Origin: an uncultured Lishizhenia sp.
Lineage (GTDB): Bacteria > Bacteroidota > Bacteroidia > Flavobacteriales_D > Crocinitomicaceae
Direction: 5' to 3'
NCBI GenBank assembly: GCA_964506255.1
Contig: CAZDKE010000005.1
Span: 2,876-66,875 of the forward strand
Length of the DNA: 64,000 nt
In this document: piece after piece, positions 10,792 through 24,423 of the stretch
How positions within the stretch are numbered: the first letter of the stretch is position 1
How the letters are laid out: each line of letters starts with the position of its first letter
The notes under the pieces: model-generated
The model's database searches: none
Seen by the model: only the letters and a program-made list of their open reading frames with translations
What the model was told of the DNA's origin: nothing
Position numbers and translations under genes: made by a program

Positions 10792-13700
10792 ATGAAATTT
10801 TATATAAGTTTAGTATTAATCATTTTAAGTTGCTCTCTCCAAATAAACGCTCAGTCACTAGCAGGTGTTAAACAATTACACACGCACAATAATACCGGAA
10901 AAACGCTCATAGAAAACAAAGGTCAGTGGCCAAAAGGTGTTGTTTTTCGAGCAAATATGGATGGCGGAAAATTGTGGGTACTCGAAAATAAAATGATTTT
11001 CCACTTGCAAGATTATTCGGCGATGCACAAAGCACACGCTATGAATACGCCTGGATTTACTGGAGAAACAATTAAAGAAACTTTGGTGCATTTGAATTTT
11101 GTTGGATCCAAAAAAGCGACTCGAATTGAAAAAAATAACCCAACTAAATTTTATTACAATTACTTTATCGGTACTGACCAAAGCAAGTGGGCATCTGATG
11201 TACACGGCTTTGAATCTGCTGTGATGAAAGAGTTTTACACTGGAATTGATTTTAAAGTTATCGGTCAAGGTGATGAAGTTAAATATGAATTTATAGTTCA
11301 ACCTAAAATAGATCCTTCTGTAATTAAATTGAACTATGCAGGACAAAAAAATCTTCGAATCGACCGAAAAGGAAATTTGGTAATTGATACCGAATTAGGA
11401 AAAATCTTTGAAAATAAACCTTATGCGTATCAAATTATTGAAGGTCAAAAAAAGGAAGTGGCAGTTAAATTTGTTTTGGAAGGTGATAATGTTACGTTTG
11501 ATTTGGGTAAATACAATCCAAATTTTCCTTTAGTTATAGATCCAGTGCTTATTTTTTCAACTTATGTAGGTGCAACCTCAGATAATTTTGGAATGACAGC
11601 CACTTATGGTCATGATGGAACTGCTTATTCTGGCGGAATTGTTTACGGAAATAACTTTCCAATTCCAGATAATCAGACTTATGACATTACTTCAAACTTT
11701 ACGGCCTTGTCAGGTTCTTATGGAGTTACAGATGTATTCATTACAAAATACAATCCGACAGGAACACAAATGTTATGGAGTACTTTCATTGGTGGAGGAA
11801 ATAATACTGCAGGTACAGAAACGGTTCACAGTATGATTTGTGATTTAGATGATAATCTCTATTTTTTTGGTGCAACTTCAAGTTCAGATTTCCCAACCAC
11901 AGCAAATGCTTTTGATCAAACTCACAATGGCGGTGGAACTGCTGAGTTCTATTTTAATGGTGTTTATTATTCTAGTCAAGGTTCAGATATTTATGTAGCT
12001 AAGTTGAGCACAAATGGTCATAATTTATTGGGTTCAACACTTGTAGGAGGCTCAGCAAATGATGGAGTTAATTATACAGATGCCTCACTTCCTTATAATT
12101 CTGTAAATGCTTATTCTGGTTTAATTTCAAACTACGGTGACCAATTTAGAGGGGAAATAATGCTCGACCAAAATAACAATGTTCTCGTCGCATCTTGTAC
12201 AAAATCATCTAATTTTCCTGTTGCAAATGCCGTTCAAGGAACAAATGGAGGTGGACAAGATGGTGTTGTTTTCAAATTAGCAGCAGATTTTCAAAGTTTG
12301 CTTTTTTCAAGTTATTATGGAGGTTCTGCCGATGATGCTTGTTATTCCGTCAAAGTGGATGATTTTGATAACATCATTTTTGCAGGAGGAACCAAATCAA
12401 CAAATTTAATAGCAACAACAGGTGGATGGCAGCCTGCAAATGCTGGAGGTACGGCTGAAGGATTTGTAGTGAAATTACCTCCAACAGGAAATAATATTAC
12501 CCAAGCAAGTTACATCGGGAGAAATCAATACGATCAAGTTTTCTTTGTTGAAGTGGACCGAGATAATAATATCTTTCTACTTGGTCAATCCGTTGGTGGA
12601 ACTTTTCCAGTTGTCAATGCGCCTTATTCAAATGGAAACAGTAGCAATTTTATCATCAAATTAAATCCTGCCCTAAACACCAATCTAGCATCAACTCGAT
12701 TTGGAAATGGAAGTACAGCAATCAATGTTTCGCCAGCGGCATTTTTAGTCGATGTTTGTGGAAATATCTATGTTTCCGCTTGGGGAGCGAATATTTTACA
12801 AAGTACAGCATTGAACGGAATGCCGGTTACACCCGATGCATTTCGTTTAACACCTCCAAATGGTTTTGATTTTTATTTGTTGGTACTTGAACGAGACTTC
12901 GGTGGTATTCTTTATGGTTCATACATTGGCGGAAATCAATCTCAAGAACACGTTGATGGTGGAACTTCTCGCTTCGATAAAAATGGAATTGTGTATCAAT
13001 CAGTTTGTGCAGGATGCAGTAATCACGATGATTTTCCAACCACTCCAGGTGCTTGGTCGGCAACAAATAATAGTAGCAATTGTAACAATGCAATCTATAA
13101 ATTCGACACGGGTGTAATTCCAAATGCAGAATTTACTACCGATCAAGTTGAAGGTTGCCAAGATTTTACAGTAACCTTTGACAACAGTTCTTCGGAAGAC
13201 GATTCGTTTCTTTGGGATTTTGGCAACGGAAATTTGGATTCAGTTACCGTAAATCCAGTTATAACTTACGATACACCAGGTACCTACCAAGTAAATTTAT
13301 ATGTAACAGATAGCTTTTGTTTGATAGTTGACACTGCTCGCGTTACCATTACTGTGTTAGACTCTATCCAAATTGATGTTCCAGACACCTTAAAATTATG
13401 TAACTCACTTCCAACTCAATTGATTGCAAATAGCTACGGAACAGGCGATTATTTCATTTGGTCAACGTCTCCGAATTTTACAAATCCCCTAAATATCCCA
13501 TCAGATTCAATAATAACAGTTTCTCCTCCTGATGGTAAATATTATATTAAAGTTGGAAATCAATATTGTAATAGAATAGATAGTGTAGTGGTAATTTTTG
13601 ATGTACCGCCAACTGCCGAAATAACCTTAAATAATCAACAAGGATGTGCTCCTTTGACCGTCACGGTTACAAATTCTTCCGTACAAACAAGTTATTTCTT

Positions 13701-14871
13701 ATGGAATTTTGGAAATGGAACCCTTGATTCAGTGAACACAACAACATCTGTAACTTATTCAACGCCAGGAACCTATCAAATAACCCTCACAATAGTTGAT
13801 GATGTCTGTTCTACAAACGATACCGAAACTGTCACCATTGTTGTTTCTCCTGGAGTAACTATAAATTTAGTGGATACAATTTCCTTATGTGCTTCTGTTC
13901 CTATTACTTTTAATCCAATTGTGGGTGGTGGAGCAACAGAATTCATTTGGTCTTCAACTAATCAATTTAGCGATACCTTAAATACCGATTTATCCCAGTC
14001 TTCACTAACAGTAAATGACCCAGCAACTGGATATTATTATTTTCAAGCAAGTAGTAATGAGTGTGAAAATAGCGATAGTGTTTATGTTGAATTTACAAGT
14101 GCAAGTTTGTCTTTAACTGGTGATAATTTAATTTGTTTAGGTGAAACAACAACTATCACTGCTGTAAGTGCCAATCCATCTATTACGTTTACGCATTCGT
14201 GGTCGCCTTCTACTATTATTGTTTCGCCAACAACAAGTAACCAAGTTCAAGTAAATCCAACGACTTCGCAATATTTATATTTAAATGCTAGTTCTTCCAA
14301 TGGTTGTTTCATTGAAGATTCAATTTATATTTCAGTTTCAACCATAAATCCAACAAGTGTAGTTGCAAGTGCTTCGCAGACAATCGTTTCACCAGGAACT
14401 ACTGTAGTTTTGAGTGGAACACCTTCAGGGATGAGTTCTTACTCTTGGACACCAACAGTTGGGTTAGCAACGCCTAACGCTCAATCGACAAATGCTTTGG
14501 TAAACGAAACAACAATTTTCACATTGACTGTTTCCGATGGGATATGTGAGGTTTCCGACACAGTGGAGGTTAAGGTTTACACTATCATTTGTGAAGATCC
14601 GTATGTTTTTATTCCAAATGCATTTACTCCAAATGGAGATAATAACAACGATGTTTTGTATGTAAGAGGTATTTGGATTGAAAAAATGATTTTCAGGGTT
14701 TTTGACCGCTGGGGAGAAATGGTCTTTGAATCTACTGATCCGAACTTTGGTTGGGACGGAATTTTTAGAGGGAAAAAATTAGATCCAGATGTTTACGATT
14801 ATTATTTAGATGTTACGTGTATTGGAGGTTTGCAATCCATCACGAAAGGAAATGTTACGTTAATGAAATAA
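10792..14871 (+). CDS. 1359-aa secreted protein with beta-propeller (SBBP-like) repeats, PKD domains and a T9SS type-B C-terminal domain
   Basis: Signal peptide. Repeated ...FPTT.NAFDQT..GG.D.FV.K motifs are SBBP-like. Two PKD modules are present (FLWDFGNG...TYDTPGTYQV). The C-terminus is YVFIPNAFTPNGDNNNDVLYVRG...FDRWGEMVFES...GWDG. Confidence 0.9.
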   Translation: MKFYISLVLIILSCSLQINAQSLAGVKQLHTHNNTGKTLIENKGQWPKGVVFRANMDGGKLWVLENKMIFHLQDYSAMHKAHAMNTPGFTGETIKETLVHLNFVGSKKATRIEKNNPTKFYYNYFIGTDQSKWASDVHGFESAVMKEFYTGIDFKVIGQGDEVKYEFIVQPKIDPSVIKLNYAGQKNLRIDRKGNLVIDTELGKIFENKPYAYQIIEGQKKEVAVKFVLEGDNVTFDLGKYNPNFPLVIDPVLIFSTYVGATSDNFGMTATYGHDGTAYSGGIVYGNNFPIPDNQTYDITSNFTALSGSYGVTDVFITKYNPTGTQMLWSTFIGGGNNTAGTETVHSMICDLDDNLYFFGATSSSDFPTTANAFDQTHNGGGTAEFYFNGVYYSSQGSDIYVAKLSTNGHNLLGSTLVGGSANDGVNYTDASLPYNSVNAYSGLISNYGDQFRGEIMLDQNNNVLVASCTKSSNFPVANAVQGTNGGGQDGVVFKLAADFQSLLFSSYYGGSADDACYSVKVDDFDNIIFAGGTKSTNLIATTGGWQPANAGGTAEGFVVKLPPTGNNITQASYIGRNQYDQVFFVEVDRDNNIFLLGQSVGGTFPVVNAPYSNGNSSNFIIKLNPALNTNLASTRFGNGSTAINVSPAAFLVDVCGNIYVSAWGANILQSTALNGMPVTPDAFRLTPPNGFDFYLLVLERDFGGILYGSYIGGNQSQEHVDGGTSRFDKNGIVYQSVCAGCSNHDDFPTTPGAWSATNNSSNCNNAIYKFDTGVIPNAEFTTDQVEGCQDFTVTFDNSSSEDDSFLWDFGNGNLDSVTVNPVITYDTPGTYQVNLYVTDSFCLIVDTARVTITVLDSIQIDVPDTLKLCNSLPTQLIANSYGTGDYFIWSTSPNFTNPLNIPSDSIITVSPPDGKYYIKVGNQYCNRIDSVVVIFDVPPTAEITLNNQQGCAPLTVTVTNSSVQTSYFLWNFGNGTLDSVNTTTSVTYSTPGTYQITLTIVDDVCSTNDTETVTIVVSPGVTINLVDTISLCASVPITFNPIVGGGATEFIWSSTNQFSDTLNTDLSQSSLTVNDPATGYYYFQASSNECENSDSVYVEFTSASLSLTGDNLICLGETTTITAVSANPSITFTHSWSPSTIIVSPTTSNQVQVNPTTSQYLYLNASSSNGCFIEDSIYISVSTINPTSVVASASQTIVSPGTTVVLSGTPSGMSSYSWTPTVGLATPNAQSTNALVNETTIFTLTVSDGICEVSDTVEVKVYTIICEDPYVFIPNAFTPNGDNNNDVLYVRGIWIEKMIFRVFDRWGEMVFESTDPNFGWDGIFRGKKLDPDVYDYYLDVTCIGGLQSITKGNVTLMK
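13126..14094 (+). repeat. intragenic tandem duplication of a ~163-aa module (PKD domain plus Cys-containing beta domain) inside the adhesin gene
   Basis: Module 1 (13126..13614) and module 2 (13615..14094) align at protein level: GC..FTVTF.NSS...FLW.FGNG.LDSV....TY.TPGTYQ..L...D..C....T..VTI.V. Confidence 0.6.
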
Positions 14872-17422: not shown

Positions 17423-18167
17423 ATGAAGATTACAATTCCTGAGCCATGTGACCAAAAATGGAGTGAAATGCAAGCGTGTGTCAAATCGTTTCTGTAACAA
17501 ATGTGAGAAACAAATTATTGATTTCACGTATTATTCAGACGCTGCTTTAACAAAAGTGATTGAAGAGAATGAAGGTCGCATTTGCGGAAAATTCACTAAA
17601 GATCAGTTAGATAGGGAATTGATTTCAAGTTACAAGAAGCAATCATTTTTCTCGAATATCTCAGCGCGTTGGTTGGGTTTATGGTTGTTTTTGTCTTCAC
17701 CTTTTAATTCTATCAAAGCACAAACACCAATATAAGTGTCTCCTGAATTGAAAACGACAAATGTTGACACGAATCAATTTTTTATTTCTGGAACTGTTCT
17801 TAACCAAAATAATGAACCTGTTCAGGGAATTAAAGTAAAATTAGTAGAACTTGGATTAATGACTCGATCAGACTTTGATGGTAAATTTAAGTTTGTCTTT
17901 GAAAGCAATGCTACGGCAAGTTATTCATTAGAGTTTAATGGAACTGCTGTTTCTAAGGAATTGGAAGGATTTAGTCAAGATGATACATTAAGAATAAATA
18001 ATGTTCAGGCAAATACATCAGATATTAAATTGCAGATAATCAGTAAAAAGATAAGTGAAATCGATTTGAAAGGAGAAATTGCAGTTGTTGTGGTTAAGTC
18101 TAAATTTAGTATTTTCCGACCTAAAACATGGAATATAAGAAGTCACAAACGTTCCAGAAAGAAATAG
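17423..18167 (+). pseudogene. disrupted gene for a zinc-ribbon + carboxypeptidase-regulatory-like domain protein (one frameshift and one in-frame TAA)
   Basis: ATG 17423 gives MKITIPEPCDQKWSEMQ..., which stops after 24 codons. The family continuation ...RFCNKCEKQIIDFT lies in the +1 frame (track ORF 17448..17735). TAA at 17733..17735 is followed in the same frame by VSPELK...FFISGTVLNQNNEPVQGIKVKL, which is CarboxypepD_reg-like. Confidence 0.65.
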
Positions 18168-18280: not shown

Positions 18281-21091
18281 CTAAAAAATCTTTTTTTCTT
18301 TCTTTTCCCAAAACCCTGGTTTTTTAAAAAAGTAAAGAAATAAGACTATGGTCATTAAGAAAAACAACCAACCTGGTTCACTCATTTCAGTATTTTCATC
18401 TTCAATATCGTAGGACTGTTTACCGTTTAAAACCTGCTTTTGTTTTCGCAATAAACTGTTCTTTTGTGCTTGATTTTCAACAACTAGATAAGAAGTGTAA
18501 GGAGTCAAAATCCGCGATTGAAAGCTAAATTTTACTTGTTGCACCCATTTTGAATCTACTAGTTCTGGATGCTCAATGTGATTTCTATAGTTTGCTTGTA
18601 AATGTAAACCCGACAACCAATCTTTTTGCATTGCATACTTTGTAGATTTTATGATAGCTGCGTTTTTGAAAATCAAACTTCCTTTTTGGTTATCAGGAAT
18701 ATACACCTTGCTTTTTGAATCAATTGGATATTCCAAAACCTCATTTCCAACTTGAATAGATGTGTCTTTTAAAGCAATTTCAAAAGGATTATTATCTAAA
18801 AAATGAGCGTTAAGCACCTTATGATTTTTTAAATGATAGAAAAAGTTGTTCTCTGGGTACAAGTGTTTCCAGTCAGCAAAGTCTTTTGTGATGATTGAAG
18901 TTGTTATGTTATCTGTAACAACCACAAAAATGGGATAAGTTGAATATTGGTTTTGTTCTGTAAAAGCTTTTTGAATGGCTCTTTCAAGAAAAAATCCTCC
19001 TTTTGAATCCGCCACTTTGATTTGTGTTTTCCAATTTTCTTGAATGGAAAAAAGAGTACTATAACTGGCTACACAACTGATTACTGCGTTTTTACAAAGC
19101 TGTTTGTTGGCTTTTAAAAAATTCTCAATGACTTGTGTATATTTCTCTTTCTTAGCTGGATCACTTACATCAACCATAAAATGAATGTAAGGTTTACGTT
19201 TGATTTTTCTTAGTTTTCGCTTTTCATTACTCGAAACATAAATTGCTGTTTCGTCTTCAAAATGGGAATTACTTTTTTCATTTTCGTTCCCAAGCTTTAC
19301 AATTTCCCCATCTATCTCTAATTGAATAGGTTCTTTGTGGATGAATTGAATACCCGTTTTCCGCACTTCTTGGTTGTTAAATGGAAAAACCCTAAACTCA
19401 ACTTTATTACCTGTTTTATAGAATAGAATTCCCGGGTCACGATTTTGATTTTTGATATTGGAATAAATCCAAAATGCAGTTTTCTTTTCTGCCAAAATGC
19501 CCATTTCTTTTCTTTTTCCAACGTATAAATAGTAATCGCTAATCCAGCAGGCGTCAGGTAAATTCAAGAGTGTGGCATATTCTTGCTTACCAAAATCAGC
19601 AGAAGTATTTGTTAACTGAAAATCAACCCAAGTTGTCCAATAGTTTTCTTTTTTATTGAAGGTGCTTCTCGAAGAAAGCTTTGAAATTTGAACTGTTGAG
19701 TCCAATTTAGATTCTGGGAAACTTCGAAAGTATTTTCCTTCTGAAAAGATTCGCTCCAAGGTATTGATTTTTGTTTCTGAAAGTGTCAAATTATCCAATA
19801 CAAGCCAATTGTAATAGCTTGATAAATAAGGTTTTTGATTGCTAGAGGTGAAAAAATCAGAGTTGGATTTGTTGCTTTTAATCGCATCTAAAGTCCTTAA
19901 CAGTGCTTTTTCGTCTATTTTCTTGTTATTTGAAAAATCAGGTGAATAAACGTAATTCAATGCCTGACTCAAATTATTTCTATCGTTCCAATAATCTAAA
20001 GTGATAATGCTAGGTATTACAAGAAATGCTATTAAACCTATGATTCTAAGTTTTGGTTTGGAATAAAATTGACTCAAAAATTGAAAATCTTTATGAAGTA
20101 CGGTGATATGTATAATGAAAAGAATTAAAGGTGTCAACATTAAAATTCCAATTCCTAAAGCAAAAATGGCTATTACTGAAAGCGGAAGAAAAGGCAAAAA
20201 CACCATGAAAAAGTAGAAAGTATAAGCGAAGGTTAGCATCCGAAAGCTAAAAATTAAGAGTTGACGTCGCGGATTATCTTTTTTAGAAAGGCATAATAAA
20301 ACACCATTTAAAATCGCAAGAAAAGGAAACCAAAGACTAGAAAAATCTCCAATAACATCAGAGAAATCAAGCCCTGAATTACTTTTTCTACACAGTGATA
20401 AACCGATAAGTGGCAGAATTATCGCAAATAGTACTTTCCAAATTAGCACATTTTCGTTGTAATTCTTGGCGTTTTTTGACATCAATGTATAAATGAAGCG
20501 AACCAGAAAAAACAAAAACAAAATGATTGCTGTAATAACAATGATAAGAATAGAATGTACTCCAAAGCCTTGATCAACCGTTTTCCAAAATGGCGCGATG
20601 ATAAAGAAATAAACAAATGAAATCATTGGAAATAATATGGCATAAAGCACATTAGACCACGGATTAATATTCTTGTTTTCTGGAACGGAAAGTGTCACCA
20701 AAATAAAAAGAGCAAAAGCCATTGTTGGCATCAGAAAAGTCCCTGTGTAAAGCAATAAATTTCCTGTAAGCATCCAATTTGGAATAGATCTCGGAATAAG
20801 TAAATCGAAATTATAACTGAAAGCATACAAATAAATTAGGTAGAAAAATAAAGTTCCCAATGCCCAAAATAGCGTTGTTTTTTGCTTTTTAAATAGAGCA
20901 TAAATTGTGTACGCGATTTGGATAGCTGTTATGAAACTAAAGGAGAATCCAAAAGCTAACCATTGATTTTTTGTTTCAGAATTGAGTAAAGGCTGAATAA
21001 CGTTATAATCTCCCCAAAACACTAAAATTAAAAGTAAGGAAGGAACGATTGTTACAAAAACAATCCATTTAGGATGAAGCAAGAATTTCAT
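18281..21091 (-). CDS. MSEP-CTERM sorting-domain protein (polytopic N-terminal domain + VIT-like + degenerate vWA-like + MSEP-CTERM signal)
   Basis: C-terminus ...NTEMSEPGWLFFLMTIVLFLYFFKKPGFWEKKEKKIF has motif, TM helix and basic cluster. The first ~370 aa contain 10 or more hydrophobic helices. VIT-like segment: EYATLLNLPDACWISDYYLYVGKRKEMGILAEKKTAFWIY. vWA-like segment: MVDVSDP...GGFFLERAIQKA...VVVTDN. Confidence 0.85.
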   Translation of the reverse strand: MKFLLHPKWIVFVTIVPSLLLILVFWGDYNVIQPLLNSETKNQWLAFGFSFSFITAIQIAYTIYALFKKQKTTLFWALGTLFFYLIYLYAFSYNFDLLIPRSIPNWMLTGNLLLYTGTFLMPTMAFALFILVTLSVPENKNINPWSNVLYAILFPMISFVYFFIIAPFWKTVDQGFGVHSILIIVITAIILFLFFLVRFIYTLMSKNAKNYNENVLIWKVLFAIILPLIGLSLCRKSNSGLDFSDVIGDFSSLWFPFLAILNGVLLCLSKKDNPRRQLLIFSFRMLTFAYTFYFFMVFLPFLPLSVIAIFALGIGILMLTPLILFIIHITVLHKDFQFLSQFYSKPKLRIIGLIAFLVIPSIITLDYWNDRNNLSQALNYVYSPDFSNNKKIDEKALLRTLDAIKSNKSNSDFFTSSNQKPYLSSYYNWLVLDNLTLSETKINTLERIFSEGKYFRSFPESKLDSTVQISKLSSRSTFNKKENYWTTWVDFQLTNTSADFGKQEYATLLNLPDACWISDYYLYVGKRKEMGILAEKKTAFWIYSNIKNQNRDPGILFYKTGNKVEFRVFPFNNQEVRKTGIQFIHKEPIQLEIDGEIVKLGNENEKSNSHFEDETAIYVSSNEKRKLRKIKRKPYIHFMVDVSDPAKKEKYTQVIENFLKANKQLCKNAVISCVASYSTLFSIQENWKTQIKVADSKGGFFLERAIQKAFTEQNQYSTYPIFVVVTDNITTSIITKDFADWKHLYPENNFFYHLKNHKVLNAHFLDNNPFEIALKDTSIQVGNEVLEYPIDSKSKVYIPDNQKGSLIFKNAAIIKSTKYAMQKDWLSGLHLQANYRNHIEHPELVDSKWVQQVKFSFQSRILTPYTSYLVVENQAQKNSLLRKQKQVLNGKQSYDIEDENTEMSEPGWLFFLMTIVLFLYFFKKPGFWEKKEKKIF

Positions 21092-21608
21092 TTGGTTGAA
21101 GTTTAATTAGTAATTTTTCGGTGAAGTAATAGGCTACAATCAAAAAGGTTAAATTGTTAATAATCCCAATAGATTCGTGAATGATTGAAGCGTCAAGTGA
21201 GGTGAGACGTTGAAGTTTTTCTTGTAAAATAATTGAAGAATAAATTCGTGAGGAATTAGCTAAAATGCTTAAAATGTAAGCTCCAAAAAGACTTAAACTA
21301 ATGGAAATGACTTTTTGATTGTGAAATTTCAAATAGCCTATTGAAAGTACTGACAGTAAAATAAAACTTAGGATAAAAAAATTAAAACCTGAGCAGGATT
21401 TATTGATAGTCACATTCAATTCTTCGAAGAAATAACCATTATCAGAAGTAAAAAAGTAAGTGCTAGCCGTTAAAAATTCAACTGCTTTTGAAGTTGGCTG
21501 TAACAAAAGTTTTAAATCACTTGTTTCTGTTTGTGTGTAAAGAATTTTAAGTGAAAGGAACGTAACAGCGAGAAAAAAATAATAAGGAATATTTTGCTTG
21601 ATTTTCAT
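21069..21608 (-). CDS. xrtK: exosortase family protein (XrtK-like), the dedicated partner of the MSEP-CTERM protein
   Basis: 179-aa polytopic protein with ordered Cys (INKSCSGFNFF), Arg (LANSSRIYS) and His (IIHESIGI) motifs of the exosortase/archaeosortase fold. It overlaps the substrate gene by 23 nt. Confidence 0.8.
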   Translation of the reverse strand: MKIKQNIPYYFFLAVTFLSLKILYTQTETSDLKLLLQPTSKAVEFLTASTYFFTSDNGYFFEELNVTINKSCSGFNFFILSFILLSVLSIGYLKFHNQKVISISLSLFGAYILSILANSSRIYSSIILQEKLQRLTSLDASIIHESIGIINNLTFLIVAYYFTEKLLIKLQPNEILASS

Positions 21609-22000: not shown

Positions 22001-23425
22001 TCAATTTATATCCAGCAATTCCTTCTCCACCTCACTATCCAAATAAGTCCAAGACTTCCAGGTTTTTTCAGCTTGATTGGTTTTGAATACATTGATTTTT
22101 CTAATTAATCGTTTATGGAAAAATCTTTTTTTACCTTCACTTTTGATATTTGCTTCCATTTTTAAGAGGCTTGGAATTGTGGTATCTGAGAGCGCTAGCA
22201 TGTAATATAAATCGATTTCACTTTTCAATGATTGATTGTTGTTGACGATTATTTGGTCCCAATTGATTAAAGATGAAAAGATTAGTACTAAGAAGAAAGA
22301 CCAACCATTCATCCTAAATAAGAACAGATTCTTTTTCACTAAATAGATTTTCAAGATCGTTGAAATCAAACCAACAAAGGTCAAGAAAGTGTATACATAT
22401 ACACCGATTCGCTTGTGAGTTAAACCGTATAAGTCAATGTACATAGCGTTTTTTGCCCCAACGGAAACAAGTAGTATTAGATTTTGAATCAACCAAATGT
22501 ATGCTAGCACTTTCACGAACTTATTATTGGTAAAGAAGTTCATTGCTCCGCGGAAATAGAACAAAACAATAGCAATAGAAATGAGGATTGTAAAAATCAG
22601 CGTTCCCACACTTTGATGTAGGAACGATGCAAAAGTCACATTTTCAGGTAATTCTTGATTGAAAAGGAGAAAATTCATATCCCCAAGATTGACAATTAGA
22701 ATCAATAAATTGAGTAAGATGAACAATACCTTGGCAGAGAAATATTCATCAACTAAAGTCAGCGTTTTGCCCCATAGCGACCATTCTTCGTGTTTATAGT
22801 TGGTGATTCTTAAGGTTTCAGGTTCATCGAATCGTTGTAAGTCTTCGATGTATTTGACATTGTAAAAGCCATAAATCAACCACAATCCAAACAAGGTGAA
22901 GAAAATCCAATACATTGAAATCCAATCTAAATTGATTTTGTCGGTCAATGATTCAAAAATGGGGTTTGAAACGCGATACATTCCGAAAAATAGAAACGCA
23001 ACTAGTATCGGGATTCCAATGAGCATCAGTTTTTTGGCGCTGGGAGTTTGATCTTTTGAAAAACGTTTTGGAAGTTGATTAATGTCGTCGATTCCTGAAA
23101 GAAACCACGAGTTTAACCCATAAATACTCGCAACTAGAATACTTGAATTTGCACTTGCACTCATTCCTGTTAGAACTAAAAGCGAAGTTAAGGATGCGAT
23201 GATTGAAAGTAAGTTACCATAGTAAGCAACACTGAAAGAAGCGATTAAACTCAAAAAAGCTACAATCAACCAATTTCTGTTTTTGAGCAAGCTTGCATTT
23301 TTGATGAGAGCGAAAATTAAAAGAATTACTGTTAAAATACTGAGGTTTATTCCCAACATTTCTTTGTAAAATAGATAGCTGTAAACTCCTGTTACAACTA
23401 GAATAATCCAATCGTTTTTTTTCAT
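22001..23425 (-). CDS. large polytopic membrane protein (DUF4173-like), unknown function
   Basis: 474 aa with about 12 hydrophobic helices and no recognisable catalytic motif. It has its own copy of the operator/promoter palindrome upstream. Confidence 0.6.
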   Translation of the reverse strand: MKKNDWIILVVTGVYSYLFYKEMLGINLSILTVILLIFALIKNASLLKNRNWLIVAFLSLIASFSVAYYGNLLSIIASLTSLLVLTGMSASANSSILVASIYGLNSWFLSGIDDINQLPKRFSKDQTPSAKKLMLIGIPILVAFLFFGMYRVSNPIFESLTDKINLDWISMYWIFFTLFGLWLIYGFYNVKYIEDLQRFDEPETLRITNYKHEEWSLWGKTLTLVDEYFSAKVLFILLNLLILIVNLGDMNFLLFNQELPENVTFASFLHQSVGTLIFTILISIAIVLFYFRGAMNFFTNNKFVKVLAYIWLIQNLILLVSVGAKNAMYIDLYGLTHKRIGVYVYTFLTFVGLISTILKIYLVKKNLFLFRMNGWSFFLVLIFSSLINWDQIIVNNNQSLKSEIDLYYMLALSDTTIPSLLKMEANIKSEGKKRFFHKRLIRKINVFKTNQAEKTWKSWTYLDSEVEKELLDIN

Positions 23426-23455
23426 TTTATTTGTTTTTTAGTTTATTTTAAAAGT

Positions 23456-23474
23456 ACTTTGTATTTCAAAGTTA
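23456..23474 (-). promoter_or_regulatory. palindromic operator ACTTTG-N5-CAAAGT overlapping a TAACTTTG -7 promoter box, upstream of the DUF4173-like gene
   Basis: Plus strand reads aaaagtACTTTGtatttCAAAGTtaaaa. Read on the minus strand, TAACTTTG (23474..23467) fits TAnnTTTG. A near-identical site lies at 24442..24460. Confidence 0.55.
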
Positions 23475-23488
23475 AAATGCAAATTTTT

Positions 23489-23788
23489 TTAGTTCGTCTT
23501 TTTGATCAACGATTCCAAAGCGCTCAAATGCTCCATAAAAGCACTTTTTCCTTGGCTCGTTGCTGCGTAAGTTGTGTTAGGTTTTTTTCCAATGAATTGT
23601 TTGTTTACCAGTACATATTCCAGTTTTTCCAATGCTGAAACGTGACTTGCTAAATTCCCATCTGTGATGTCTAGCATTTCCTTTAATGTTGCAAAATCAA
23701 CGGTATCATTGACCATCAAAATGGACATAATTCCAAGTCGAATTCTACTTTCGAAGGCTTTGTTCAGGTGTTCAATGTAGTTTTTCAT
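23489..23788 (-). CDS. small winged-helix DNA-binding transcriptional regulator
   Basis: 99 aa starting MKNYIEHLNKAFESRIRLGIMSIL...GNLASHVSALEKLEYV, an ArsR/MarR-like wHTH pattern. This start gives an ATGA overlap with the upstream gene. The 22-codon N-terminal extension in the track ORF is rejected. Confidence 0.75.
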   Translation of the reverse strand: MKNYIEHLNKAFESRIRLGIMSILMVNDTVDFATLKEMLDITDGNLASHVSALEKLEYVLVNKQFIGKKPNTTYAATSQGKSAFMEHLSALESLIKKTN

Positions 23789-24423
23789 TTTTCGTATTTG
23801 AAATACATTAAAGTACCGTAAATAATATGTAAAACTCCAAAACCTAAAGCCCAAAAAAGTAAGCCGTAACCAATATAGATAGAAGCAATAAGTCCGAGAA
23901 TGATCTCTAAAACTCCAAGGTATTGAATGTCGTGTAAGGTATATTTTCCCGCATTGATCAAAGCTAAACCGTAGAATATTAGGGTAGCAGGTGCAATCAA
24001 TTCAATCATTCCGTGATAAAATAGAATAAGGCAGAAGATTCCACCAGTCATCAAGGGTAAAAGTAGATTTGTAAGTAATCTCTTGGAACTCGAATTCCAA
24101 ATCGTTTGATTGTTTCGCTTTGCTTTTCTGGAAGTAAAATAAACTCCGAATGTTAAAGCTAAAGTCAAAACAGATAAACCATTGATAATAAAAAAAGTAA
24201 AGAAATTTTTGTTGGGTGTACCGTCGTTGCGATACGCATAATCGTAATAATTATCTGAGCTAAAGTCGATTTCCAAATAAACATAAGCAGCAATAGCACC
24301 GATTAAACCAAAAATACCAGCGGCTACACCAGACAATCCACTTAGCGAAATGAACTTAGTCGATTTTTCCATCATTGCTCGAATCTCGGTCAATGCTTCT
24401 AAATGCTGTTTGTTTTCTTCCAT
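23785..24423 (-). CDS. membrane protein of unknown function (about 6 TM), first gene of the regulator module
   Basis: 212 aa with an amphipathic N-terminus followed by hydrophobic helices. It is translationally coupled (ATGA) to the wHTH gene. Confidence 0.6.
   Translation of the reverse strand: MEENKQHLEALTEIRAMMEKSTKFISLSGLSGVAAGIFGLIGAIAAYVYLEIDFSSDNYYDYAYRNDGTPNKNFFTFFIINGLSVLTLALTFGVYFTSRKAKRNNQTIWNSSSKRLLTNLLLPLMTGGIFCLILFYHGMIELIAPATLIFYGLALINAGKYTLHDIQYLGVLEIILGLIASIYIGYGLLFWALGFGVLHIIYGTLMYFKYEK

Follow-up and report, generated by a model that had tools for sequence, protein, structure and literature searches.

Exosortase K and its adjacent MSEP-CTERM protein in an uncultured Lishizhenia: a predicted one-enzyme, one-substrate pair with an ITIH-like cargo

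Why should a protein that is already held in the membrane by a predicted 11 transmembrane (TM) helices also carry a C-terminal signal for a sorting enzyme, and what would that enzyme do to it? The question is raised by two overlapping genes in a 64,000-nt stretch of DNA from an uncultured Lishizhenia sp. (GenBank assembly GCA_964506255.1, contig CAZDKE010000005.1, positions 2,876 to 66,875), which was analysed as a whole and is referred to here as the window. Both genes lie on its minus strand and encode a 179-aa exosortase-like protein, exosortase K (XrtK), and a 936-aa membrane protein that ends in the motif MSEP, a hydrophobic helix and a basic cluster. The PEP-CTERM/EpsH system was reportedly described in 2006, and the attachment target of exosortases is said to have been an open question since. 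We consider it very probable that the two proteins belong to the families named here and are enzyme and substrate, and we hold with good confidence that they make up a bona fide XrtK/MSEP-CTERM system, that is, a dedicated pair of one enzyme and one substrate encoded by a translationally coupled two-gene unit.

The xrtK/MSEP-CTERM gene pair and its conservation

The xrtK gene occupies positions 21069..21608 and the MSEP-CTERM sorting-domain protein gene, whose product is the predicted dedicated XrtK substrate, positions 18281..21091. When re-checked, these coordinates, the two lengths and a 23-nt overlap were as an initial annotation of the window, made from the sequence alone, had described them. 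That annotation had also given the family names, and searches with hidden Markov models (HMMs) of NCBIfam now uphold them: XrtK scored 142.7 bits against TIGR04287 (exosortase K; curated cut-off 55), residues 5-169 aligning with profile positions 1-161 of 163, and the substrate scored 833.3 bits against TIGR04286 (MSEP-CTERM; curated cut-off 150), residues 4-924 aligning with positions 3-914 of 920. The window pair agrees with the XrtK/MSEP-CTERM system defined by these models in HMM scores, length, motif, tail, adjacency and lineage. Its Crocinitomicaceae-like clade differs in having a 23-nt overlap instead of the usual 17 nt and a slightly longer basic tail, and otherwise in nothing substantive.

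The novelty that had been claimed for the pair was overstated. Public databases already name relatives, including cluster mates of the window XrtK, 'exosortase K' and 'MSEP-CTERM sorting domain-containing protein', and both exact proteins have been deposited in NCBI. The window pair is a standard member of a database-defined system and is already known; since standard pipelines name both genes correctly, its value for genome annotation is routine. What is added here is an orphan domain of 11 predicted TM helices, an ITIH-like cargo, a core match to the model of the XrtN system, a predicted topology for a mini-enzyme, a natural fusion and a linked regulator module.

MSEP-CTERM homologues number at least 624 and keep a length of ~940 aa. 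A scan for relatives, using one genome per species, gave 215 genomes with a relative, and the best 80 loci were analysed. These span Flavobacteriales, Chitinophagales/Saprospiraceae, Cytophagales, Bacteroidales (including Marinilabiliales-type genera) and Balneola, and the closest to the window pair among them come from Crocinitomicaceae metagenome-assembled genomes (MAGs; 86% identity). Four loci (L048, L053, L075 and L076) come from MAG contigs whose labels read Elusimicrobia, Spirochaetales, Leptospiraceae and Spirochaetia; these may be mis-binned Bacteroidota contigs, or may reflect lateral transfer beyond the Fibrobacteres-Chlorobi-Bacteroidetes (FCB) group. No annotated relative was found on a plasmid.

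In all informative loci (77/77; the other 3 of the 80 have <152 bp of upstream sequence and were left out of the count), xrtK lies directly upstream of the MSEP-CTERM gene and on the same strand. Among 78 pairs, the overlap between the two genes is 17 nt in 55, 23 nt in 7 (the window included), 4 nt in 7 and 8 nt in 2. In the window, the 3' end of xrtK meets the 5' end of the MSEP-CTERM gene at 21069..21091 (minus strand; 23 nt, ATGAAATTCTTGCTTCATCCTAA). Across the loci, the stop codon of xrtK, TAA, falls within codons 5-6 of the substrate's conserved N-terminus, MRNLLNPKW, which makes the junction dual-coding. Such a conserved dual-coding overlap argues for translational coupling of the two genes and, with it, for production of the two proteins at 1:1. 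Given that the features of the pair are conserved across the 80 loci, they are not due to chance. Moreover, mirror-tree comparison indicates that XrtK co-diverges with every region of the substrate (r 0.80-0.85).

At one locus (L070, 6001-8820, Unidentified eubacterium SCB49) two open reading frames (ORFs) of 578 aa and 322 aa divide the MSEP-CTERM gene between them, and the second has the MSEP tail; a pseudogene or a sequencing frameshift is possible. The gene is also truncated at L063.

The G+C content of the window is ~32% throughout, without a compositional break at the xrtK/MSEP-CTERM locus. Upstream of xrtK we found no Rfam match at E<=1, no Bacteroidota-type -33/-7 promoter match near the operon, and sigma-70-like sites no commoner than in shuffled sequence; a hairpin 3' of the MSEP-CTERM gene was not significant (z = -0.48).

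Predicted architecture of the enzyme and its substrate

Besides its own family model, XrtK matches the exosortase/archaeosortase signature TIGR04178 (27.1 bits, cut-off 23; residues 66-163) and Pfam PF09721, Exosortase_EpsH (33 bits, gathering score 25.7). The PF09721 match is restricted to profile positions 104-247 of 254 and does not extend over a full-length polytopic exosortase domain. Judged by these profile matches, XrtK is a truncated (mini) exosortase, in which the C-terminal ~60% of a canonical exosortase domain is represented.

The Cys, Arg and His motifs expected of an exosortase are present in that order, as KSCSGFN (nt 21381-21401), NSSRI and HESIG. The codon of Cys72, the predicted nucleophile, placed where TM2 begins on the periplasmic side, lies at 21393..21395, that of Arg121, at the predicted periplasmic end of TM3, at 21246..21248, and that of His144, at the predicted periplasmic start of TM4, at 21177..21179, all on the minus strand. 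Cys72 is kept in 76 of the 77 XrtK orthologues, and the lone exception looks like a local alignment shift; Arg121, His144 and G148 are invariant (77/77). All three putative catalytic residues fall inside the regions matched by TIGR04178 and PF09721 and, placed by the TIGR04178 match, are the family's conserved polar residues, as the initial annotation had supposed.

The AlphaFold2 (AF2) model of XrtK is a confident one (predicted local distance difference test score, pLDDT, 86.9; predicted TM-score, pTM, 0.80). It consists of helices 7-26 and 29-47, a sheet of three strands at 51-68, helix 72-92, which opens with Cys72, the long helix 96-136 that bears Arg121, and helix 140-170 with His144 near its start. 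Both termini and the stretch 93-99 contain basic residues. With these, the simplest topology would be one of four TM helices with both termini in the cytoplasm (N-in/C-in), aa 29-68 forming a small periplasmic helix and three-stranded sheet; with this topology, Cys72, Arg121 and His144 would all lie at the periplasmic membrane interface. No solved structure was related to XrtK by sequence at E<=10, and a fold search of the PDB with the model returned generic helical bundles only (best E 0.28).

The substrate begins with a polytopic domain (aa 1-366; 19994..21091, minus strand). The initial annotation had counted 10 or more helices here; this can be sharpened to 11, since family-averaged hydropathy gives 11 TM segments within aa 1-366, plus the signal helix at 907-922, and the AF2 model has 11 long helices in this domain. 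The mean number of Lys and Arg residues is 2.0-4.0 per cytoplasmic loop and 0-2.2, mostly <1, per outside loop. Taken with the hydropathy, this positive-inside tally assigns the N-terminus of the substrate to the cytoplasm and aa 367-906 to the periplasm.

The 11-TM domain has no Pfam match at E<=10. An exhaustive profile search with it yielded 759 representatives (50% identity clustering), and the full-length proteins among the 150 best-scoring matches listed are all ~930-960 aa long. Comparison of its halves with hhalign and of the domain with itself revealed no transporter-like internal repeat (probability 0.4%). Two candidate relationships were rejected at the level of sequence: the domain as a hidden exosortase half (hhalign probability against XrtK 0.2%; no Pfam exosortase match at E<=10), and kinship with the neighbouring DUF4153 protein described below (hhalign probability 0.1%). 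The mean conservation of the domain is 0.75, on a par with the globular parts.

Within it, a TM core (aa 151-373, ~TM5-TM11; 19973..20641, minus strand) matches positions 4-211 of TIGR04477, the substrate model of the XrtN system (E 2.1e-5 for the window protein, 3.6e-4 for that of L078). Invariant residues of the core are H179, K206, W218-K219, G248/F250, C267, R284 and H328; C267, R284 and H328 are predicted to face the cytoplasm, and H179 and G248/F250, together with W106, the outside. The window protein matches TIGR04477 in two blocks that keep their order, the TM core and then a VIT region (positions 349-439), and scores 43.7 bits against a cut-off of 250, so that it belongs to a sister family and is not a member. 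Compared by way of this model, the MSEP protein has ~150 extra N-terminal residues and ~4-5 more TM helices. These matches suggest that the substrates of two dedicated exosortase systems, XrtK and XrtN, share a layout of polytopic core plus VIT. The layout is thus not unique to the MSEP-CTERM family, and its description as unusual was to that extent overstated.

The periplasmic part of the substrate is predicted to be an ITIH-like module, akin to the heavy chains of mammalian inter-alpha-inhibitor (ITIH). It opens with a VIT-like beta-sandwich (aa 467-600; 19292..19693, minus strand), which the initial annotation had spotted and for which there is now some support: Pfam VIT (PF08487) matches the window protein at 21.5-23 bits, slightly under the gathering score of 26.5, PF08487 matches are precomputed for several MSEP-CTERM homologues, the sandwich is modelled by AF2 with pLDDT 80-92, and the fold match to ITIH1 given below speaks for the assignment. 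With a mean column identity of 0.83, the sandwich is, together with the segment at aa 841-890, the most conserved part of the substrate.

Next comes a vWA-like alpha/beta segment (aa 633-764; 18800..19195, minus strand; conservation 0.67). Its earlier designation holds at the level of fold and secondary structure, through the strand/helix alternation of the AF2 model and the alignment with ITIH1, but not at that of Pfam VWA, to which it has no match. Elements of a MIDAS, the adhesion site that depends on a metal ion, are present as D641-x-S643-x-P, GGF 698-700 and T726-D727. Of these, D641 and S643 do not vary and T726/D727 hardly do; conservation is lost at the second Ser, and an invariant F700 stands where GGT has its Thr. 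Judged by these residues the MIDAS is incomplete, or degenerate as it had first been termed.

The module is closed by a conserved C-terminal segment (aa 841-890, ...TPYTSYLVVENQAQK...; 18422..18571, minus strand) with a mean column identity of 0.84 and 18 invariant columns, which forms a strand (866-870) and helices in the AF2 model and lies within the ITIH1 alignment. In a Foldseek search with the substrate model, the sole significant PDB matches were to ITIH1 (6fpy/6fpz; E 2e-5), over ~590 of 599 target columns. A sequence search against solved structures gave a faint match to the VIT domain of ITIH4 alone (E 0.54).

The sorting signal at aa 903-936 is built as first described. The MSEP motif (aa 903-906; 18374..18385, minus strand), the predicted site of recognition and cleavage by XrtK, borders the TM helix directly, without a spacer. 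It is followed by the C-terminal signal helix (GWLFFLMTIVLFLYFF) and a cytoplasmic basic cluster (KKPGFWEKKEKKIF), which are predicted to be removed by XrtK (18284..18373, minus strand). MSEP is invariant in 31/31 aligned homologues. Over 81 substrates, the motif, TM helix and basic tail are kept by the orthologues, with exactly MSEP in 73, MTEP in 3, and MSDP, MSGP and MAEP in 1 each; 2 genes are truncated. Both checks that the initial annotation had set for its reading, one on the catalytic residues and one on the tail and gene adjacency in orthologues, came out in its favour. Across the loci a median of 25 residues follows MSEP, with 5 Lys/Arg in the tail. The sequence of helix and tail is poorly conserved (0.45 column identity), and release of the cytoplasmic tail as a regulated signal was rejected on the ground that the tail is short and so little conserved. 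The PEP-CTERM model of NCBIfam (TIGR02595) gave no match at E<=0.01, the motif being MSEP.

A search of the window and of ~1 Mb of sequence flanking the 80 loci brought up no further protein with xEP, a helix and a basic tail, save the second half of the split gene at L070. One MSEP-CTERM protein from the search for representatives (P0209, 1241 aa) reads past the basic tail into lipoprotein-like sequence (MILLISLLFYASC...), probably owing to a lost stop codon or a gene-calling artefact.

A natural in-frame fusion of XrtK and substrate was also observed (P0261, locus L081, 3001-6474). It is 1157 aa long, has a ~20-aa linker and no stop codon between the two parts, and lies on an 8-kb metagenomic contig; in its nearest relative, L082, the two genes are separate with a 4-nt overlap. 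The fusion fits an XrtK with its C-terminus in the cytoplasm, a substrate with its N-terminus there, and two proteins that lie physically close together. It may be a genuine Rosetta-stone protein, or a rare mutation or assembly error.

Processing at MSEP: proposed mechanism and alternatives

We propose the following course of events. The substrate would insert into the inner membrane through its 11 N-terminal TM helices, with its N-terminus in the cytoplasm, and its ~540-aa ITIH-like module (VIT/hybrid sandwich plus vWA-like domain) would come to lie in the periplasm, followed by a twelfth TM helix (TM12) and the cytoplasmic basic tail. Flanked in this way by TM helices, the module would be pinned to the membrane at both ends. 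MSEP would meet TM12 at the same periplasmic interface as Cys72, Arg121 and His144 of XrtK. Following the precedent of ArtA and XrtA, Cys72 would attack a peptide bond in or next to MSEP, giving an acyl-enzyme, and the C-terminal helix and basic tail would be discarded. By this analogy, we regard cleavage at MSEP as likely. In the least certain step, the acyl intermediate would be passed to an acceptor in the envelope (a lipid head-group or a glycan) and not to water; we put forward such transfer, in place of plain hydrolysis, as a tentative proposal that falls short of probable. The mature protein would stay anchored by its own 11-TM domain, and its new C-terminus would be covalently coupled elsewhere. 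This coupling would parallel archaeosortase-dependent lipidation and the ester linkage of ITIH heavy chains. The ITIH analogy and the recurring VIT/vWA cargo described below lend appeal to coupling, which is an unproven idea.

Several known systems bear on this proposal. XrtA/EpsH and XrtK belong to the same superfamily, as indicated by PF09721, TIGR04178 and a weak XrtA match, and PEP-CTERM proteins carry a similar tripartite signal, in which a short motif ending in EP stands against a TM helix that is followed by basic residues. XrtA, however, is a one-to-many enzyme encoded in exopolysaccharide (EPS) loci and has a full-length polytopic domain, whereas XrtK is one-to-one, comprises ~60% of the domain and lacks neighbouring EPS genes. 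The substrates that bear PEP-CTERM are secreted and have no polytopic anchor. The MSEP protein is analogous to them and not one of them. ArtA of Haloferax volcanii, which acts on PGF-CTERM proteins, comes from a homologous enzyme family and is its only member with experimental proof: the conserved Cys173 and Arg214 are essential, and removal of the C-terminal helix is coupled to attachment of a lipid (PMC9263693). ArtA differs in being archaeal and in having many substrates with a PGF motif; these lose their sole anchor and become lipid-anchored, whereas the MSEP protein would keep its 11 TM helices.

On the side of the cargo, the fold match to ITIH1 (PDB 6fpy) extends over nearly the entire heavy chain, with VIT/hybrid, vWA and C-terminal strands. 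ITIH heavy chains shed a C-terminal pro-domain, and their new C-termini are covalently linked to a polysaccharide, by an ester bond to chondroitin sulfate (PMC7170535). ITIH1 differs in its sequence (~9% identity, with a low TM-score), in being a secreted eukaryotic protein and in its intact MIDAS (D298, S300, S302, D403), and the chemistry and enzyme of ITIH processing are unrelated to exosortases. VIT/vWA proteins recur as cargo of rhombosortase (GlyGly-CTERM), of exosortase and of a dedicated Gram-negative sortase (LPXTG, TIGR03784); rhombosortase and the Gram-negative sortase thus resemble XrtK in joining VIT/vWA/ITIH homology to a C-terminal sorting enzyme, and in the Gram-negative sortase system cargo and enzyme form an adjacent dedicated pair, as here (PMC3237569). 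The enzymes and signal motifs of both are unrelated to XrtK and MSEP. Dedicated adjacent pairs of enzyme and target have also been described as a concept (Haft 2023 preprint).

If strictly one-enzyme, one-substrate, the system would rank among the simplest settings for exosortase chemistry, with one protein and one Cys. It is widespread in culturable genera, among them Flavobacterium, Aquimarina, Polaribacter and Tenacibaculum, and the ITIH-like fold of its cargo supplies a concrete hypothesis, covalent coupling of the C-terminus to a glycan.

A number of points weigh against the proposed mechanism. The first is the question from which we started: the substrate keeps its 11-TM anchor, so that processing cannot serve anchor replacement, and the usual rationale for sorting, to swap a TM anchor or to release the protein, does not fit. 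No glycosyltransferase, EPS or lipid-modifying gene is conserved beside the pair in the flanks of the 80 loci, and since no gene of an acceptor pathway is conserved there, no particular acceptor is indicated. XrtK lacks the first ~100 positions of the Pfam exosortase domain, which means that its autonomous activity is not guaranteed. The structural evidence is also uneven: the full-length AF2 model of the substrate is moderately confident (pLDDT 71, pTM 0.55), the vWA-like segment reaches moderate values of 58-76, and the TM-scores of the ITIH1 match are low (0.20-0.27). The fusion is a singleton, present on one metagenomic contig, and a search with the fusion protein returned no second one. 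Finally, 'MSEP-CTERM' and 'exosortase K' have no match in the full text of the papers searched, in which no XrtK/MSEP-CTERM experiment is reported; this is consistent with the initial annotation, whose author knew of no biochemical description. By analogy we infer the cleavage, the exact position at which it would occur and any acceptor.

An alternative is an enzyme that does nothing but hydrolyse, and we take it as a serious contender, if not a favoured one. XrtK would clip off the C-terminal helix, water would resolve the acyl-enzyme and the new C-terminus would be left bare; the doubly anchored ITIH-like module would be unlatched at one end, and may then extend or change its conformation. 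The permanent 11-TM anchor of the substrate would make a new anchor needless, acceptor-making genes are not conserved nearby, and whether exosortases and archaeosortases are one-step transpeptidases is stated to be still unsettled (Haft 2023 preprint). The same source, however, describes Cys/Arg/His as the suspected triad of these enzymes, in an arrangement that mirrors sortase transpeptidases. Moreover, ArtA, the sole studied homologue, couples cleavage to lipid attachment (PMC9263693), and ITIH-like proteins are repeatedly paired with sorting systems of the attachment type (PMC3237569).

The missing N-terminal part of XrtK invites another explanation, namely that the polytopic domain of the substrate partners the truncated enzyme and supplies helices or an acceptor-binding site, which exosortases of full length possess in their own right, so that the functional unit would be the complex and not XrtK by itself, and TM12 would be processed inside one XrtK-substrate complex. 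We think this unlikely. It would account for an XrtK that spans just profile positions 104-247 of 254, and the strict 1:1 synteny with its conserved overlap implies the stoichiometric co-production that a complex would need. The natural fusion links the XrtK C-terminus to the N-terminus of the TM domain, TIGR04477, the model for substrates of another dedicated exosortase system, is matched by the TM core, and the TM domain is as conserved (0.75) as the globular parts, with many invariant polar residues. Yet homology between TM domain and XrtK is undetectable by hhalign and by the Pfam exosortase search, and most of the invariant polar residues of the TM core (C267, R284, H328) are predicted to be cytoplasmic, opposite the periplasmic active site. 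Nor does the mirror-tree analysis single out the TM domain, the partial r of the TM core being equal to that of the vWA region (0.27), and the fusion is the one example of its kind.

A bolder form of this idea, which we regard as quite improbable, would unite the two systems, XrtK and XrtN, in one class, marked by a composite machine of a truncated exosortase and the conserved polytopic domain of its own substrate: an acceptor linked to a lipid or a glycan would be offered by this domain, and the ITIH-like module would have its C-terminus passed to that acceptor by XrtK. If true, this would be a bacterial counterpart of ITIH transesterification, in which an inner-membrane protein is covalently tethered to another layer of the envelope.

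That the 936-aa protein is not the substrate, or not the only one, and that XrtK processes proteins encoded elsewhere in the genome, with adjacency reflecting mere co-regulation, is very improbable: classic exosortases are indeed one-to-many, and our search covered the window and ~1 Mb of flanks, but xrtK is adjacent in 77/77 loci with overlapping frames, MSEP is invariant in this family only, no further xEP, TM helix and basic tail came to light in the sequence searched, and NCBIfam treats its model as the equivalog of a single protein family.

Neighbouring genes in the window

An upstream module, recognised through Pfam matches and the survey of loci, lies outside the core pair at 22001..24423 on the minus strand. 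It consists of a 212-aa membrane protein (TM212; 23785-24423), an HTH_34 winged-helix regulator (23489-23854) and a DUF4153 polytopic protein (22001-23425), all on that strand. The TM212-HTH_34 pair is found upstream of xrtK, on the same strand, in 18 of the 60 loci with >=3 kb of upstream sequence (~30%), in several orders; the third gene is DUF4153 in 11 loci, CreD-like in 4, or there is none. Loci listed with the module are L001, L013, L023, L028, L032, L033, L040, L047, L052, L056, L057, L059, L061, L065, L067, L069, L071, L081 and L082. At L082, the CreD, xrtK and MSEP-CTERM genes each overlap by 4 nt, an arrangement suggestive of a single operon. The module may act as a regulator of the XrtK system or work with it; it is loosely associated and not part of the core pair.

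The whole window contains no tRNA gene and no Rfam family at the gathering score. At 10792-14871 (plus strand) it encodes a protein of 1359 aa that combines DUF7948, several PKD domains and a type IX secretion signal of the CHU_C kind, and that is unrelated to the xrtK pair; the presence of such a cargo protein means that the organism has a type IX secretion system. Convergent with the MSEP-CTERM gene, at 17448-18167 (plus strand), lie two abutting ORFs of 95 aa and 143 aa with GTG starts. The 143-aa ORF has a weak CarboxypepD_reg-like match, under the gathering score, and the two may be one mis-split or degenerate gene.

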